Origin: a virus
Taxonomy: Duplodnaviria; Caudoviricetes
Length of the DNA stretch: 64,000 bases
Reading direction: 5' to 3' (one strand)
IMG/VR virus record: IMGVR_UViG_3300007754_000852
The notes below the pieces were generated by a model. It saw only the letters and a list, made by a program, of their open reading frames with translations, made no database searches and had not been told where the DNA came from. Positions 56,679 through 62,279 of this stretch are shown one piece after another. Made by a program: the position numbers and the translations under genes. Positions within the stretch are counted from its first letter, which is position 1. Each line of letters opens with the position of its first letter.

Positions 56679-56993
56679 TTAGTGAATTACGATCTCTCTC
56701 ACCTTGTCTCTCATATTATATCTCTCCATCGACATAACTGCACCGTAGGCACCTGCATTCTCAATCAGGATGACATCTCCGGGCCTTGTCTCAGGCATCA
56801 ATCTATTAAATCCCATCACATCTCCGCTCTCACATATGGGACCAACGATCTGATATCTGCTGGCAGGTTCATCATTGAGCCTTGACAGGTTAAAGATCTC
56901 GTGATGCGCCTCATACATCGCTGGGCGGATGAGCGTGTGCATGCCGGCATCAATTCCAATGAACCTGAGGTTGTTCTTCTTTCTTACCTGAGC
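56679..56993 (-). pseudogene. lysA: C-terminal fragment of diaminopimelate decarboxylase (LysA)
   Basis: RFIGIDAGMHTLIRPAMYEAHH, YQIVGPICESGDVMG and ILIENAGAYGAVMS..YN. About 105 aa only; lacks the PLP-Lys barrel and overlaps the upstream gene's 3' end. Confidence 0.8.
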
Positions 56994-57462
56994 CCACACT
57001 GTGTCCGAGACCAAATGCTGCGTGCGGATCTATGCTTCCCAAATCAGAAATGCTTATTTGACCTGTAGCTTTCCAGCTATCATGAGACTCACGAGGGTGT
57101 GCTTCATCGCATGATTGTCCTTCATGATCGCTGTGAAGTACTTCCATCCCAGTATCATTATCATAATCTTCATATTCTTGCTCACCAGAAAGACTATCAA
57201 CAACACCTTCAAGAGCAGATCTAGTAGCTGGACAAGACGTATCATTTGCTATAGCCATGACAGCCTTAAGCGCCTCTTGTCTAGTAAGTGGTGATCCAGG
57301 TCCATCATCAGGTAGCACATCTGGTGAAACTCTAGACATAAGACTGACCTCACCATGTCCAGGGTCTTCAGCTCCAGCTGCACAAGGTCCGCACATCTCT
57401 ATCAAGATATTATTAACTTCGTTCAGTATTAGATTTTTGAACTGTCTTTTAGTTATTCTCAC
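56950..57462 (-). CDS. Acidic hypothetical protein with MRITKRQFKNLILNE leader (putative internal head protein)
   Basis: GTG start with GGAGAG SD; N-terminal motif shared with two neighbours. Confidence 0.65.
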   Translation of the reverse strand: MRITKRQFKNLILNEVNNILIEMCGPCAAGAEDPGHGEVSLMSRVSPDVLPDDGPGSPLTRQEALKAVMAIANDTSCPATRSALEGVVDSLSGEQEYEDYDNDTGMEVLHSDHEGQSCDEAHPRESHDSWKATGQISISDLGSIDPHAAFGLGHSVGSGKKEEQPQVHWN

Positions 57463-57736
57463 GATCTCTCCAGCTTAATGATCCACCAGGAATTTTTCTT
57501 GATCCTGGAAAAGGCTCTGTTACAAATTCTTCTTTTTCTTCTTCGCTTGGTCTATATGACCCGGGATTAAGTATATCAGCAGCATAAACTATAATCTTAT
57601 ATGCCTCTTCTTTGCTCCACTCAGATGATAACGTTGATGCGAGATTCTCAGATGCCTGAAGGATTTCATATTCTTTATCCGAATCCTCATAAACCTCTTT
57701 AATGATTCTTTGAAGCATTTTTTGTGAGACTTTCAT
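57449..57736 (-). CDS. Acidic hypothetical protein with MKVSQKMLQRIIKE leader
   Basis: Probable ATG 57736; shared N-terminal motif. Confidence 0.65.
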   Translation of the reverse strand: MKVSQKMLQRIIKEVYEDSDKEYEILQASENLASTLSSEWSKEEAYKIIVYAADILNPGSYRPSEEEKEEFVTEPFPGSRKIPGGSLSWRDRENN

Positions 57737-57743
57737 GATATGA

Positions 57744-58151
57744 TTATATTTCTCCCTCATCATACCCTAGTACGGTTCTATGAATCATGCTACTGAGCGC
57801 TGTGTCGAATCCCTCTTGTATCTCTATTTCTCTAGGCCATGATTCTTCACCAGTACTTGATGAGTGAACAATATGTCTGACCTTCATATATGCCCTCGCT
57901 ATTGGATCAATTGAGCTTCTAGCCTCTGACTGAAGAATGTTCATAGTTACATTAAAAGCTTCATCAGATAGCGCTCCCCATTTTTCTCTGGATCGTTTTT
58001 CTTCTTCTCGTCTTTCTAGTGATCGTATCGCTTCAGGTTCTGGTGCATCAAATATACTAGCACTTTCAGACTCACCTGCGACCTCTTCACTCTCTATTTC
58101 TTCAAATGCCTCTAGAATGATTTTCCTAAGTTCATTTTTTGTGACTCTCAC
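57744..58151 (-). CDS. Acidic hypothetical protein with MRVTKNELRKIILE leader
   Basis: GTG 58151 with GGAGAT SD; shared N-terminal motif. Confidence 0.65.
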   Translation of the reverse strand: MRVTKNELRKIILEAFEEIESEEVAGESESASIFDAPEPEAIRSLERREEEKRSREKWGALSDEAFNVTMNILQSEARSSIDPIARAYMKVRHIVHSSSTGEESWPREIEIQEGFDTALSSMIHRTVLGYDEGEI

Positions 58152-58317
58152 AGCTATCTCCAAAAAGTAATTCAGATATAACTATTTACTTCACAATGAA
58201 ATAATATGATGTCAATATGCTTATTGTACCATTATACAGCTAGTGATTGTGACAGCCCACGATATGAAAAGTATTGTACCAAGAACAGCTGCAAATAGAG
58301 ACTCACTATCAACTTTT

Positions 58318-58641
58318 TTATCGTGTGTGTCTGTGATGACTATGTCCCTGCCTGTGGTGGTTGTGTCCCTGTCTGTGATAATGTCGATTAGCTGGCGGAC
58401 CCTGCTTATGTGTTCTATATGATTTACCAAGTGACTTGTGATTCCAATAGCCCCCGTTCCATCTATATTTTCTAACGATAGTGTTTTTTCCTACACCGTA
58501 TTTTAGATATGACCAGTAACCAGGAACCCAGATCCACCCGGATTGAACGCTGACTGAAACTCCACTTCTAGCTGATGTGTGAGCGTGTGCTGAACAGCTA
58601 GTTCCAAAAAAACTAAGGGCAGCTAATAGCATAAACTTCAT
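58318..58641 (-). CDS. Secreted/lipoprotein-like protein with WxxGxW-type repeats and His-rich tail
   Basis: Signal peptide MKFMLLAALSFFGTSC, WVPGYW, WNGGYW and HRQGHNHHRQGHSHH. Confidence 0.6.
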   Translation of the reverse strand: MKFMLLAALSFFGTSCSAHAHTSARSGVSVSVQSGWIWVPGYWSYLKYGVGKNTIVRKYRWNGGYWNHKSLGKSYRTHKQGPPANRHYHRQGHNHHRQGHSHHRHTR

Positions 58642-58681
58642 GTTAAACTCCTATATATGATGCTTACATATATTATAAGCT

Positions 58682-58909
58682 TTAGGGCTGCCTTTCATTC
58701 AATTTTTTATTAAAAAAGTTTATTTTTTCTTCTTCAAGCCTGTCTGCTAGCCTTATAACATTAGTAGAAAATGTTTCTGTAAACAGAAATGGAACTATTG
58801 CGTGAATCACGCTAACAAAAAGCATCATTGCTGACCACACAGCAAATCCAAAAGATCTGTAGAAGTGTCCTAGATATGTCATGTCCGTATCTTTTAAATG
58901 TTTAAACAA
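58682..58909 (-). CDS. DUF6356-like small membrane protein
   Basis: HLKDTDMTYLGHF...IHAIVPFLF...S pattern recalled for this family. Confidence 0.6.
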   Translation of the reverse strand: MFKHLKDTDMTYLGHFYRSFGFAVWSAMMLFVSVIHAIVPFLFTETFSTNVIRLADRLEEEKINFFNKKLNERQP

Positions 58910-58949
58910 AATTTTACCTTTTATTTTATAACTATTTCACTAAGATATA

Positions 58950-59648
58950 AAAAGGGCCGGTCGAAAGACCGGCCCTAGATGGGGGAAAAGCGCAGCATAC
59001 CTCGCTTTTCATTCTCGTGACCCTCAACTCCGCTTGAATTCGAAGCTGTCCCTTTTGGTTAGAGGTGCACACACCGACCTGTAAAGCCGTTCACGAGCTT
59101 TCTCCCTGTTCTTAGGCTGTAATACCTACGGAACAGCACGCCCTACTATCGCCATGACATTCTGCGTTCTCTTGAGTGAGCTGTACACTTCACCTCGTGA
59201 TCGCGCGCCCTGCTTCCAAACCTTGGGAGCATATCCACAGGACCCCTTTCGGGACGGTGGTCTTGTTGCCAATTCCACCAGAGAGACTTCTGTCACCGAC
59301 AGTTAGATTCTGAAGAGAGTTAACCCTTCTTCCCAAGACATCATAGCCTTTCGGCTTCTTGGATTGCCCTTGTCCCGTTTCCACGATGAACCTACAAGTC
59401 CATGGATACCCTCGGTAGCACTTCCCTAGCGGAATAGGGACTCATACCTTAGGCCACTGAACGACTTCGAAAGTTCCACCTTCCTTAACTCGTCCCTCCT
59501 CTTAGTGAAGCGGCATGACGTAAGAACGTCACCTTCTCCATCGGAGTTTTCTCTATCCTAATACCAAAAGATATTAGATCCAGGAGCCAGTAACTCCACC
59601 TGGATTTTTGGACCCGAGAACATGGGTCACATAAATTTTCAAAGAACT
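58950..59648 (-). ncRNA. Large (~700 nt) highly structured non-coding RNA, GOLLD/ROOL-like size class, family unassigned
   Basis: No credible ORF, visibly more GC-rich than its flanks, with many hairpins (GCC-GAAA-GGC, CCC-GAAA-GGG, TCCCTA/TAGGGA, CTGTC/GACAG) and long-range helices. Has its own promoter, boxA-like leader and terminator. Confidence 0.75.
58954..58975 (-). terminator. Rho-independent terminator ending the ncRNA
   Basis: GGGCCGGTC-(TTTC on minus)-GACCGGCCC perfect 9-bp stem, then TTTTT on the minus strand. Confidence 0.9.
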
Positions 59649-59682
59649 ATAGAAGTATATACCTTCTACTTCTGTTGTACAA
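59636..59682 (-). promoter_or_regulatory. Sigma70-like promoter (TTGTAC-17-TATACT) followed by boxA-like GTTCTTTGAAAA
   Basis: -35 at 59677-59682, -10 at 59654-59659 and boxA-like element at 59636-59647, directly ahead of the structured RNA. Confidence 0.7.
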
Positions 59683-59684
59683 AA

Positions 59685-60239
59685 TTATACATCTTGTCTC
59701 TGCGATGTTTTAATGCCCGCGATTCTTTGCTTTTCTCTATATTCTGGTGTTCTAAGTGTGGCACATCTCTCATCATAGTTATCCTTCCATCTCTTTTTTG
59801 CAGCTCGGCTATAGTTTTCTCTATGTGTGGCAGTTCTAACCTTTCCATAGTTTGGAGAATTAATTCCTTTTTTGCCATACATGCCGTTATTTTTACCTAT
59901 TGATGAGTGGCCTGAAACGTATTTCGCGAAACCTCCTTTGTTATATCTTACTTTCTCTCCGCAGCCACACTTGCACACGGGCCATTTGCCATCGTGATTA
60001 AACTTAACAATATAGTCTACAAACTCTACCTGATGTTCTTTTCTTACGTGTCTTGCGAGAACATTGTTTGTATTTGCAACTCGTTTATTGCAGATATTAC
60101 AAGACAATTTAAACTCAACACTCTTGTCATATAGCTTTTCTGCAATATCCTTATGCCAATAACCGATATGCGACCCTATTGATCTTTTTGTATTGCTTAG
60201 CAGTTTATCGCAGTATTCACACTTTACTTTTTCTACCAT
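59685..60239 (-). CDS. Zn-finger/NUMOD3 DNA-binding protein; likely a truncated homing endonuclease with no nuclease domain
   Basis: CEYC..H..H, CNIC..H..H, CKCGCG, and NGMYGKK/NYGKVRTATHRENYS (NUMOD3-like). No HNH, GIY-YIG or PD-(D/E)XK motif before the stop. Confidence 0.65.
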   Translation of the reverse strand: MVEKVKCEYCDKLLSNTKRSIGSHIGYWHKDIAEKLYDKSVEFKLSCNICNKRVANTNNVLARHVRKEHQVEFVDYIVKFNHDGKWPVCKCGCGEKVRYNKGGFAKYVSGHSSIGKNNGMYGKKGINSPNYGKVRTATHRENYSRAAKKRWKDNYDERCATLRTPEYREKQRIAGIKTSQRQDV

Positions 60240-60303
60240 ATTTACCTCTACATAGTAATAATATAGTATGAATAGATTTTTGTAAACTACTTAAAATAAA
60301 AAA

Positions 60304-60325
60304 GGAGGGAGCAAAAGCTCCCTCC
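60304..60325 (-). terminator. Rho-independent terminator after the major capsid gene
   Basis: GGAGGGAGC-4-GCTCCCTCC stem with a T-run on the minus strand. Confidence 0.88.
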
Positions 60326-60347
60326 CCGTTCATTAGATGAACTTTTT

Positions 60348-62279
60348 CTAGATCACATTGAGATCAAGCACCGTCACAGTGCCGTAGAAGTCAGCACGAA
60401 CCATCTTTTTGCCGTATCGAGTCATCACTCCCTTGCGAGGCGTGAAATCCTCTGGAGCAAAGATCGTCGGTGTGACAATTAATGGTACGTACGGAGCGTA
60501 AACGTATCCTGTCTCAAGGTAGCTACCGCCCTTATAACCAACAAGAACCTTGTTGCGTGGGAAGTAGGGGTCCTTATAGACCGTGAAACGGTTGCTCAGC
60601 GTACCGACCGGAGCTGCACCGAGTGTGAACGGATTACCAACCTGACCGTCGCCGTCAAGACTGTAGTTAGGCTTGTAAAGAACTGATGCCTCGAATACCG
60701 TTGACACCTCAGGTGAGCAAACGATGAAGTTTGCAGAACCGCGAAGAGTCTTACGGTGAATCTCATTAGCGACATCGATGATCGTCTCAACTAGCGTCTC
60801 ATACCACTCACGGACCGTACCTGTGAAGCTAGGACCGGAAGCTAGAGTGCTAGAAAGAGTAGCCTCTGTACCGTTTGTCTTGTTAACGAACTTACCTGGC
60901 ATGCGTGACCAGTAGTAGTTAGCACCTGCTGCCTCGACCAGGAGATCGTTTAGGATCTCACGGTCGATCTCAAGAGCTACCTGCTCAGAGAGGATCTGTG
61001 TTAGCTCGACCTCAGCATCCATGCTGTGGTAGGCGTTAAGATCCTGTGCGAGCTCTGGTGACCAGCGAGCACGTAGCTTGCGTGTCTGAGCTGTTACAGC
61101 GATTGACTCGATCTTGATGTCGATCTCAGGGATCGCCGGGGAGGGCGATGACGCGAAATCAGACTCAAACGATGGAATCGTGAGAGCAGAGCCGTCAGAT
61201 GTATCGATGTCAAGTGACGCAGCCAATGCGTATGATGCAGTTAGGTTAGCAACACCAGCCGGATGGGCCTTGTGAGATCCTGTAACAACAACAAGAAGAG
61301 CGGCATTTGCAGACGTTCTTCCAATGAGAGGATCTGACGTGAACTGACCGTTAGCATATGTTCCCACCTGGTTCAGACGTCTGACGTTAACAAGGTTCTT
61401 GCCACCCTGAACTGACTCAGGTACGGCTGAAAGACCGTTTCCGCCTCCGCCTTGATCTGAACCGAGGTCAGCATCTGTGAACAGTGAGACATCCTTAGCC
61501 TGTGTTGTATCCATAGAGTTGAACACTGAGGAGGCTAGATCAAGAATCACGAACTGGAACTCACCAGTTGTGTTCTGTGCTGTGTCATCGTCAATGAGGT
61601 TTGTTAGCTGTGGATCGAACTGTAGAAGTCGACCGTCAGTACCCGTTGATGCACAGACGCGACCATCTTGTAACGTTGAGTTACCCTGGAAGGCACCTGA
61701 TGCCAAGACGTTTGATGTCTGAACAATAGATGAGCTGTGAACCTTGGTATACGATGTTCCAACTAGATCATACTGACCACCGACAGCCAAAGATCCGCTT
61801 TGGACACCCTTGCCTGTGGGGTTGTTGTAGATCGACTGACCCTTACCGTATGTCTGCGCATTTGCTGCACCTGCGGCACCTGTCTGGAGATTTGAATCAC
61901 CGCCGATGCGGGTTCCATATGTGTAATCCAGATAGAAGAGCAGACCAGAGGGAAGGCTCATAGGCTGAATTGATACCAACTCATTAGATACGAGACCACC
62001 GAAGACCCTGCGGACGATCGGGAAGGCGATGTTTGTGAAACCACGAAGATCGCCAGATGTTGTCATGTTTGCTGCGCCTGTTGACAGAGAGTTTTGCTCT
62101 CTTAACAGCTGTGCAGCCTGATTCTCAAGAAGTCGAGACATGATCTCTCTATTGTGATCAGCGAGACCACGAAGAAGACCTGTTCTAGACCACTTTTCAA
62201 TCAGTCGTTGACCTTCAGCACCGACATTTCTCTGCCTGATGCCTTCTGTCAACTGTTCTAGTGTAAATGATTTTGCCAT
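60348..62279 (-). CDS. Major capsid protein (T4 gp23-like)
   Basis: IVRRVFG...LVSIQPMSLPSGLLFYLD, TRKLRARWSPELAQDL, EIDREIL and YAPYVPL...FTPRKGVMTRY. Confidence 0.97.
   Translation of the reverse strand: MAKSFTLEQLTEGIRQRNVGAEGQRLIEKWSRTGLLRGLADHNREIMSRLLENQAAQLLREQNSLSTGAANMTTSGDLRGFTNIAFPIVRRVFGGLVSNELVSIQPMSLPSGLLFYLDYTYGTRIGGDSNLQTGAAGAANAQTYGKGQSIYNNPTGKGVQSGSLAVGGQYDLVGTSYTKVHSSSIVQTSNVLASGAFQGNSTLQDGRVCASTGTDGRLLQFDPQLTNLIDDDTAQNTTGEFQFVILDLASSVFNSMDTTQAKDVSLFTDADLGSDQGGGGNGLSAVPESVQGGKNLVNVRRLNQVGTYANGQFTSDPLIGRTSANAALLVVVTGSHKAHPAGVANLTASYALAASLDIDTSDGSALTIPSFESDFASSPSPAIPEIDIKIESIAVTAQTRKLRARWSPELAQDLNAYHSMDAEVELTQILSEQVALEIDREILNDLLVEAAGANYYWSRMPGKFVNKTNGTEATLSSTLASGPSFTGTVREWYETLVETIIDVANEIHRKTLRGSANFIVCSPEVSTVFEASVLYKPNYSLDGDGQVGNPFTLGAAPVGTLSNRFTVYKDPYFPRNKVLVGYKGGSYLETGYVYAPYVPLIVTPTIFAPEDFTPRKGVMTRYGKKMVRADFYGTVTVLDLNVI

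Follow-up and report, generated by a model that had tools for sequence, protein, structure and literature searches.

The RNA gene and its transcription signals

We analysed a 64,000-nucleotide (nt) stretch of DNA, here called the window, from the virus record IMGVR_UViG_3300007754_000852; it is part of an uncultured marine T4-type phage. On its minus strand, in a gap bounded by the stop of a 184-amino-acid (aa) open reading frame (ORF) at 59685 and by a 75-aa DUF6356 ORF (58909-58682), lies a free-standing non-coding RNA gene (59647-58985), which is intricately folded and multiply pseudoknotted and belongs to a family absent from Rfam. The gene is ∼660 nt long, devoid of a protein-coding ORF and G+C-rich, with a G+C content of 0.49-0.54 inside the RNA stretch versus 0.29-0.40 in its flanks. 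An earlier reading of the same DNA (the original prediction) had described a promoter, leader, hairpins, octamers, repeats and a terminator, and we found all of these in place on the minus strand (Table 1). Folding of the stretch gave a minimum free energy of -260.3 kcal/mol compared with -224.9 ± 7.6 kcal/mol for 20 dinucleotide shuffles (z = -4.63), making it far more stable than the shuffled controls called for in that prediction. The absence of a credible ORF was also borne out: the longest frames are 46-64 aa, the 64-aa frame is open in only 6 of 64 homologues, and no open frame is conserved across these 64 sequences.

The promoter is apparent in the sequence and in a consensus scan, whose output was TGTACA-16-TATACT, and transcription is predicted to start at ∼59648-59647. 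In an alignment of homologues (A2, described below), hexamers of the form TTGTACA or TTGAACA together with TATAAT occupy the same columns in most members that are not fused to a tRNA. This conservation suggests transcription by a host sigma70-type polymerase. At the other end, a GC-rich hairpin followed by a T-run is present not only in the window but also 3' of many homologues in the same alignment. The window contains one copy of the RNA (family profile, nhmmer E = 1e-264).

Comparison with known RNA families

When the whole window was compared by cmscan with all 4227 families of Rfam 15, nothing reached the gathering score. At E ≤ 10 the interval 58600-60400 returned only terminator-like small RNA models far below their cut-offs, and in 20 homologous loci (14 + 6) the only matches were to tRNAs and one tmRNA lying elsewhere. 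The GOLLD model (RF02032; 416 positions, cut-off 150 bits) had no match at E ≤ 1 in four whole RNA-carrying records, and the ROOL model had none on the window or the 20 homologous loci, even at E ≤ 1-10. The models of OLE, HEARO, raiA and other large bacterial non-coding RNAs in Rfam were likewise without a match on the window and the 20 loci. Group I and group II intron models gave no match at E ≤ 10, and no host gene is interrupted by the RNA; RNase P RNA and tmRNA models had no cmscan match in the window, where ARAGORN detected neither a tRNA nor a tmRNA. A blastn search in ‘distant’ mode against 50,697 phage GenBank records was also without a match. We found no description of this RNA family in the literature, in which the 2023 catalogue of virus csRNAs (motifs averaging 67 nt) was not searched by sequence.

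The original prediction had offered two options, a GOLLD-like RNA or a large RNA of a new kind, had noted that hallmarks of RNase P, tmRNA and group I and II introns are missing, and had named GOLLD, ROOL, OLE, HEARO and raiA as the families to be compared. None of these matched, and the second of its two options is the one that holds: the Rfam-negative result, more than 125 homologues, extensive covariation and cover in metatranscriptomes make it nearly certain that this is a new structured RNA family. Descriptively it is a ‘large ornate phage RNA’, being longer than 500 nt, non-coding, built of covarying helices and pseudoknots, phage-borne and present in RNA libraries.

Distribution of the family

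Homologues were collected from marine metagenome and IMG/VR phage contigs, using conserved blocks of metatranscriptome contigs as exact-match search patterns. Three pattern scans of IMG/VR yielded the loci L085/L088, L087, L090 and L091; among the nine loci hit by the first pattern, a 17-mer, six were chance matches in coding DNA. A metagenome scan with a 22-mer gave at least 120 loci, of which nhmmer confirmed 119, 91 of them at full length. After removal of redundancy (<96% identity), 63 metagenome homologues remained, with pairwise identities of 72-96%. All family counts that draw on the metagenomes (119, 91, 63, 64 and 117) are counts among the matches listed, and hence lower bounds. A second pattern, taken from other blocks, added nine further IMG/VR contigs, all with a full-length RNA and with sizes that include 185, 204, 293 and 317 kb; the 293-kb record has terminal repeats and is rated a complete phage. 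Measured from the boxA-like element described below to the 3' hairpin, the RNA is 643-681 nt long across the family (median 656).

A scan of genome contigs gave two matches in Paceibacteria that showed no further similarity and a third in a ‘Methylococcaceae’ metagenome-assembled genome. As a gene for a T4-type capsid protein is present in the latter genome too, the contig with the RNA probably derives from a phage. The carriers of the RNA are almost certainly uncultured marine T4-like (‘Far-T4’) and jumbo phages.

Secondary structure and covariation

Alignment A2 comprises 64 non-redundant sequences and 953 columns. We assembled helices from RNAalifold output, from mutual information with average product correction over all column pairs and from stacked conserved complementarity, and scripted the pair counts and two controls, namely 200 column shuffles and sliding of the 3' partner by 1-2 columns. 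RNAalifold by itself gave 154 pairs on A2, 93 of them with compensatory double changes. The assembled fold has ∼25 helices plus crossing helices, with 170 pairs in a core that spans 59628-58985. Across these pairs 94.7% of cells are canonical, versus 84.8% in the column shuffles (largest value 85.4%) and 41-45% when the partner was slid. Compensatory changes occur in 106 of the 170 pairs over the 64 sequences, and compensatory cells number 1383 versus about 200 in the slid control, which answers the call of the original prediction for covariation among homologues. A family so rich in covariation therefore provides a reliable secondary-structure map.

The alignment supports a minimum of four pseudoknots or kissing loops. 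The pairing of the first hairpin loop with the GAGAA junction is 100% canonical, and all four sequences with a G to A change in the junction have the matching C to U change in the loop. The kissing pair GUGGAA/UUCCGC of one clade is replaced by GUGGUA/UACCAC in another. The upstream strand of the long-range pseudoknot lies in the loop of a helix formed by 59406-59400 and 59386-59380. The pseudoknot of the 3' hairpin loop (6 bp) is 99% canonical, with 71 compensatory cells in three pairs; this hairpin doubles as the terminator in some relatives, for example L085.

Three structural proposals of the original prediction held in part. It had two GAAA hairpins, of which the one at 59253-59244 is invariant across the family while the other lies in a variable insertion and is missing from most members (Table 1). 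The helix UCUUGGGA/UCCCAAGG, which it took to close a domain, fits the alignment; its strands are nearly invariant, with a single compensatory change (in L146), and the helix is weakly tested. The domain is instead closed by 59303-59297 with 59151-59145, and since the octamer helix crosses this closing helix it is a pseudoknot. Finally, the heptamer CTCGTGA (59097-59091) had been proposed to pair with either of two TCACGAG copies as a possible switch. The helix with the copy at 59020-59014 is sound, being 97% canonical and covarying at its outer pair (GC 22, UA 14, GU 12). Pairing with the copy at 59200-59194 is rejected: that copy is unconserved, only 69% of cells are canonical and no compensatory change occurs, and the switch is not supported.

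The RNA has many invariant single-stranded blocks that are rich in purines, among them AUAGAGAAAAC, CAGAAU and GGGAGAAA. The tetranucleotide GUAC in the loop of a short hairpin is invariant in 117 of 117 unique homologues, even as its stem switches between AGU/GCU and GGU/ACC, and no other palindrome in the family reaches 95% conservation. Two motifs seen in the window were discarded as unconserved in A2, namely CCUAAG/UAUG as a GAAA-receptor motif and AGCUCACU as a segment resembling 23S rRNA.

Table 1. Signals and structural elements of the RNA gene, in 5' to 3' order along the transcript (window coordinates).
Feature	Position	Strand	Details
Sigma70-type promoter	59682-59654	-	-35 TTGTAC 59682-59677, 17-nt spacer, -10 TATACT 59659-59654; from sequence and consensus scan
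boxA-like dodecamer GTTCTTTGAAAA (RNA GUUCUUUGAAAA)	59647-59636	-	Starts about at the predicted transcription start
H1 hairpin GACCC/GGGUC	59628-59611	-	Loop UUCUC 59620-59616 forms a pseudoknot with GAGAA 59553-59549 of the invariant AUAGAGAAAAC junction
Kissing loops of two covarying hairpins	59479-59474 with 59434-59429	-	6 bp, 97% canonical, 22 compensatory cells
Long-range pseudoknot	59394-59388 with 59310-59304	-	7 bp, 99.6% canonical, 23 compensatory cells in 4 pairs
Peripheral GAAA hairpin GCC-GAAA-GGC	59355-59346	-	In variable insertion 59356-59345; in ∼26 of 64 homologues, deleted in others
Octamer helix TCTTGGGA/TCCCAAGG (RNA UCUUGGGA/UCCCAAGG)	59338-59331 with 59228-59221	-	8 bp, 96% canonical
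GAAA hairpin CCC-GAAA-GGG	59253-59244	-	Invariant; 100% canonical, only C/U wobble variation
GUACA-loop hairpin	59189-59179	-	Palindrome GUAC 59186-59183; UGUACA in most members
Helix GCUCGUGA/UCACGAGN	59098-59091 with 59020-59013	-	Encloses 3' sub-domain; 97% canonical
Inner helix	59065-59062 with 59025-59022	-	36 compensatory cells; nested in the CUCGUGA/UCACGAG helix, non-crossing
3' hairpin GAAAAGCG/CGCTTTTC	59010-58985	-	Loop 59000-58995 pairs with 59072-59067; pseudoknot
Intrinsic terminator	58976-58946	-	Stem and T-run 58976-58953; 10-bp stem with 8 G-C pairs, then T-run

The boxA-like 5' element

The boxA-like leader of the original prediction is a constant feature of the family, which leaves the antitermination idea of that prediction viable. 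Its consensus is G-W-U-C-U-U-U-N-A-M-A-W, six positions of which (G, U, U, U, A and A) never vary among the 64 sequences. The motif is almost confined to this place: homologous loci totalling 708 kb contain 81 matches, and 75 of them are at the RNA 5' end. Between the element and the first hairpin runs an AU-rich spacer whose length varies, and the element is kept even in copies that come directly behind a tRNA and lack their own promoter. The element fits the boxA pattern G-C/U-U-C-U-U-U-A/G-A-C/A-A-A near the start of an untranslated transcript, and is close to the consensus of rrn operons, which reads GCUCUUUAACAA in E. coli and GUUCUUUGAAAA in Bacillus. The L087 element reads GUUCUUUAACAA, as compared with the E. 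coli rrn form GCUCUUUAACAA.

As with the boxA of rrn leaders and spacers and of lambdoid nut sites, the phage dodecamer is found at the 5' end of a long structured transcript that is not translated and has a variable spacer on its 3' side; like the rrn spacer boxA it sometimes comes just after a tRNA. Unlike those boxA sequences, it belongs to a phage non-coding RNA gene, is present as a single copy and is followed by a hairpin that is part of the fold, engaged in a pseudoknot, rather than an N-type boxB or similar protein site, and its role as a NusB-S10 site is putative. By analogy with rrn operons, we judge the chances that it has a NusB/S10-type function to be about even.

Presence in RNA libraries and association with tRNA genes

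In three metatranscriptome runs, each from a different study, we found 3, 27 and 104 assembled contigs with 85-100% identity to the RNA, all of which fall within 59048-59616 and none on the flanks; 1, 8 and 23 of them, respectively, are at least 99% identical to the window. Contigs from a DNA run extend past this cover, to 59685 and 59003. A total of 20 RNA runs from 14 studies contain 17-32% of sampled 31-mers of the RNA, with contigs aligned for three runs only.

Genes for tRNAs are present in 65 of the 119 listed loci. A tRNA on the same strand lies within 300 nt upstream of the RNA in 13 of the 80 loci with enough flank, five of these being a tRNA-Met fused within 60 nt, and a same-strand tRNA lies within 300 nt downstream in 12 of 103. 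Direct fusions involve tRNA-Met, tRNA-Asn or tRNA-Thr. In L087 (6702-7025 and 7030-8919, both on the minus strand) the RNA comes after an array of four tRNAs (Thr, Ala, Gly, Asn), and the array after a gene for a phage DnaK/Hsp70-like protein.

Genomic neighbourhood

Upstream of the RNA, a 643-aa ORF (60348-62279) encodes the Gp23 major capsid protein (Pfam E = 1.5e-76), whose nearest isolates are Flavobacterium phage immuto (46% identity), Microcystis phage Mel-JY01 and Rhodothermus phage RM378. The RNA is absent from 80 IMG/VR relatives with a 63-86% identical capsid protein, as judged by blastn, nhmmer and the family profile over up to 6 kb on either side of the capsid gene. Among relatives the distance from the capsid gene to the next conserved structural gene is hypervariable (0.8-4.7 kb). 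Because the capsid relatives lack the RNA and this interval varies so widely, we place the RNA in a hypervariable accessory island, outside the capsid operon proper. A functional tie to the capsid operon, next to which the original prediction had placed the RNA, is not supported, the contexts of the RNA elsewhere being quite different as well.

The 184-aa ORF that adjoins the RNA upstream (59685-60239, minus strand) has two C2H2/BED-type zinc fingers and, as read from the sequence, a NUMOD3-like GKxGxNSPNYGK repeat, with no recognisable nuclease domain. In 12 related loci without the RNA, a homologue of this ORF comes immediately behind the capsid gene (e.g. L067, 54% identity), and no homologue was found in any of the more than 125 RNA-bearing loci; L090 has a near-identical RNA with different neighbours and no zinc-finger ORF. 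We therefore rejected the idea that RNA and ORF form one cassette, since each occurs without the other. As they share no locus besides the window, they are independent insertions, and the ORF has the look of a mobile or DNA-binding gene of the capsid flank, with no relation to the RNA.

Several further features of these regions deserve mention. A 107-aa secreted-looking protein (58318-58641, minus strand) combines a signal peptide with a His-rich HxxHH repeat in its C-terminal part. In 11 loci (e.g. L087 5236-5535 and L090 3174-3476) its gene is found on the RNA strand, downstream of the RNA; it is the only neighbour in common with the window and is far from universal. Several small acidic proteins encoded close to the RNA (window 56950-58163, minus strand; L085 1503-2117; L090 310-723) have a common basic leader, M-R/K-I/V-T/S-K-x-x-L-R/K-x-I-I-L-E, which resembles the T4 capsid-targeting sequences that are cleaved after Glu. 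A 111-aa ORF (56679-57014, minus strand) has only the C-terminal sheet domain of Orn/DAP/Arg decarboxylases (PF00278, E = 1e-21) and is a gene fragment amid accessory genes of the head region. The complete 293-kb phage (G006, the record of L218) carries two tandem full-length gp23-type capsid genes (C1 176269-178164 and 178261-180147), each with a product 67% identical to the capsid protein of the window. One RNA-bearing marine contig also encodes a tmRNA (L199 2964-3366, plus strand; Rfam 117.6 bits; tag ANDNVEYDYALAA).

A repeated motif of ∼45 nt, consisting of CCGCAGGGAGGCATGGGATTACAGATGCCTCACAC and then a CA-rich tail (a hairpin plus a CA-rich run), was seen near the RNA, upstream or downstream of it, in L158, L209, L164, L162, L168, L152, L172, L123 and many other loci. 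At least two mutually unrelated families of small proteins have the motif ahead of their start codons (in 44 and 36 loci), and it looks like a shared 5'-untranslated region or regulatory RNA element of the RNA-bearing phages. It had no Rfam match where scanned, and is absent from the window at up to three mismatches.

Proposed function and alternatives

We propose the following working model. In the window phage, host sigma70 RNA polymerase would transcribe the RNA from its own promoter, and in some relatives the RNA would be co-transcribed behind or ahead of phage tRNAs. The 5' boxA-like dodecamer could, with roughly equal odds for and against, recruit host NusB/S10 as in rRNA operons; on the same balance of odds, this loading would shield the elongation complex against Rho and pausing and would aid the folding of the long untranslated RNA during its synthesis. 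The folded RNA might then act in trans as an RNA-only architectural particle, self-associating and afterwards acting on the tRNAs or ribosomes of the infected cell, a step we put forward tentatively. Self-association would use the GUAC loop and possibly also the covariation-supported ‘kissing’ contacts, as in OLE, ROOL and GOLLD. To the package as a whole (a new ornate phage RNA, boxA-type transcription, self-assembly and action on the translation apparatus) we assign a probability of about 0.5; the mechanism is much less certain than the identity of the family.

The idea of self-association comes from the invariant palindromic loop together with precedent. OLE, GOLLD and ROOL multimerise partly via symmetric kissing loops that are palindromic or invariant (Kretsch et al., PMC12286853), and in ROOL and GOLLD kissing loops that had been detected by covariation and considered ‘tertiary’ proved to be intermolecular (PMC12286853). 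By this analogy self-association through the GUAC loop is a reasonable reading of the loop, if a rather unlikely one.

A number of observations weigh against the model. The invariant GUAC might just as well bind a protein or make a tertiary contact within one molecule, and since it never varies, a symmetric contact is unprovable by covariation. RNAalifold pairs UCUUU of the boxA-like element with an invariant GGAGA (59105-59101), 98.8% canonical and with no covariation. Because both strands are invariant this helix is beyond the reach of covariation; the four sequences that vary in UCUUU show no compensation in GGAGA, which mildly counters the helix and would also affect boxA. The RNA-library cover consists of assembled contigs, which do not reveal the strand; the uncovered intervals (58600-59047 and 59617-60400) and the depth figures are no proof of where the transcript ends or how abundant it is, and as the flanks vary between strains, their missing cover is weak evidence. 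The window itself has no tRNA gene (ARAGORN), and most homologues are more than 300 nt from any tRNA. Lastly, clustering of the neighbour proteins within 2.5 kb on either side in 120 loci revealed no constant protein-gene partner, and thus no pointer to a pathway.

The model has a bolder form, in which the RNA would represent a third evolutionarily independent lineage of self-assembling RNA-only phage particles. It would be made in the manner of a small rRNA operon, with NusB/S10 loaded at boxA and in some cases in a common transcript with tRNAs, and would multimerise through GUAC kissing, the resulting cage or scaffold serving to capture tRNAs or ribosomes of the infected marine bacteria. We consider this form doubtful.

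Of the alternatives, a monomeric protein scaffold or sponge fares best, and we consider it possible, with the odds clearly against it. The RNA would be part of a ribonucleoprotein, or a decoy that ties up a host factor (for example RNA polymerase, a ribosomal protein or a defence nuclease directed at tRNAs), closer to 6S RNA or protein-bound OLE than to an RNA-only multimer. The many invariant single-stranded purine-rich blocks are what contacts with a protein or ligand would lead one to expect, although they are also explicable by pseudoknots, one of which (UUCUC/GAGAA) is supported. Abundance in RNA libraries, as seen in contigs only, and location in tRNA regions suit this reading, as does the proposal that OLE holds RpsU and other proteins (PMC12286853), whereas the lack of any protein gene consistently alongside the RNA in 120 loci does not.

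We regard a ribozyme, for example one that processes tRNA-RNA co-transcripts or acts on host RNA, as improbable. Its size, multiple pseudoknots and many invariant unpaired nucleotides are typical of large ribozymes, and several copies are fused directly to tRNAs. However, the RNA has no likeness to RNase P, group I or II introns or any self-cleaving class (E ≤ 1-10), most copies have their own promoter and terminator and so need no processing, and the similar-looking GOLLD, ROOL and OLE have no known catalysis.

A cis-acting device, be it a long leader or a processive-antitermination module for downstream genes, is very unlikely. The boxA-like element at the 5' end would suit such a role, and some relatives have a 3' hairpin without a clean T-run and genes or tRNAs close behind, but in the window a strong terminator follows, the downstream genes differ between loci, and a conserved pseudoknotted core of 650 nt far exceeds the needs of any known leader.

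Introns in T4-like phages often carry zinc-finger/NUMOD3-type genes, and the zinc-finger matches and NUMOD3-like repeat of the upstream 184-aa ORF might thus point to a remnant of a mobile intron or homing-endonuclease cassette. This can be practically dismissed: there is no group I or II model match, no gene is split by the RNA, which is equipped with a promoter and a terminator of its own, ORF and RNA occur apart (12 loci with the ORF alone, more than 125 with the RNA alone, among them L090), and the flanks differ in every clade. The chance that there is no RNA gene here at all, and that the stretch is a DNA-level element (an origin or packaging site) or an unrecognised protein-coding gene, is just as negligible, since ORF poverty and conservation are all that speak for it and it is contradicted by the covariation, with compensatory changes that keep G-U-tolerant pairs on one strand only, as well as by the occurrence in RNA libraries without flanks and the lack of a conserved open frame.

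Comparison with other large RNAs and significance

The RNA is outside the GOLLD and ROOL families, yet it occupies the same genomic niche, and its functional niche is probably the same as theirs. GOLLD is likewise longer than 600 nt, multiply pseudoknotted and phage-borne, often in or beside tRNA islands; both GOLLD and ROOL are found near phage tRNA islands, and the marine GOLLD env-38 is downstream of a tRNA-Met. GOLLD differs in showing no likeness of sequence or structure and in its length (>800 nt versus 643-681 nt here), and unlike GOLLD, which is conserved in its 3' half only, the new RNA is conserved along its whole length and carries a boxA-like 5' element. ROOL, of similar size (∼580 nt versus 660 nt), is likewise ornate: it contains several pseudoknots as well as an internal linker or insertion that varies. 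It too is non-coding, occurs in phages and prophages near tRNAs and is very abundant. It differs in coming from rumen and Lactobacillales phages rather than the marine T4-like and jumbo phages found here, and its model does not match.

The T4 tRNA cluster also encodes stable non-tRNA RNAs, ‘species 1 and 2’ (rnaC and rnaD), of about 120-140 nt. These are likewise non-tRNA RNAs of a T4-type phage, but they are far shorter, and the search of 50,697 phage records revealed no homology. OLE is ornate and about 600 nt long, and dimerises via a palindromic tetranucleotide kissing loop, a precedent for our reading of GUAC; it differs in being a cellular RNA of extremophilic Firmicutes with the partners OapA-C, whereas here we found neither a model match nor partner genes. 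GOLLD forms a 14-mer RNA-only nanocage, and an octameric cage is known only for ROOL. During infection GOLLD is abundant, and hairpin loops of conserved or palindromic sequence act in it as symmetric intermolecular kissing loops (PMC12286853).

Very few classes of bacterial and phage RNA exceed 500 nt, namely the rRNAs, RNase P, group I and II introns, OLE, GOLLD and ROOL, and each class of large RNA has revealed new RNA biochemistry, most recently RNA-only nanocages. The present family is widespread in the ocean, being found on more than 125 phage contigs (a lower bound) and in RNA libraries of at least 14 studies. Its boxA-like leader offers a handle on whether phages borrow rRNA-type antitermination for structural RNAs of their own, its invariant palindromic loop offers one on self-assembly, and the family as a whole provides an independent comparison for the role that GOLLD and ROOL play beside phage tRNA genes. 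If the RNA were indeed a third self-assembling phage particle, three unrelated giant RNAs would have converged on one solution, which would point to a general phage strategy.

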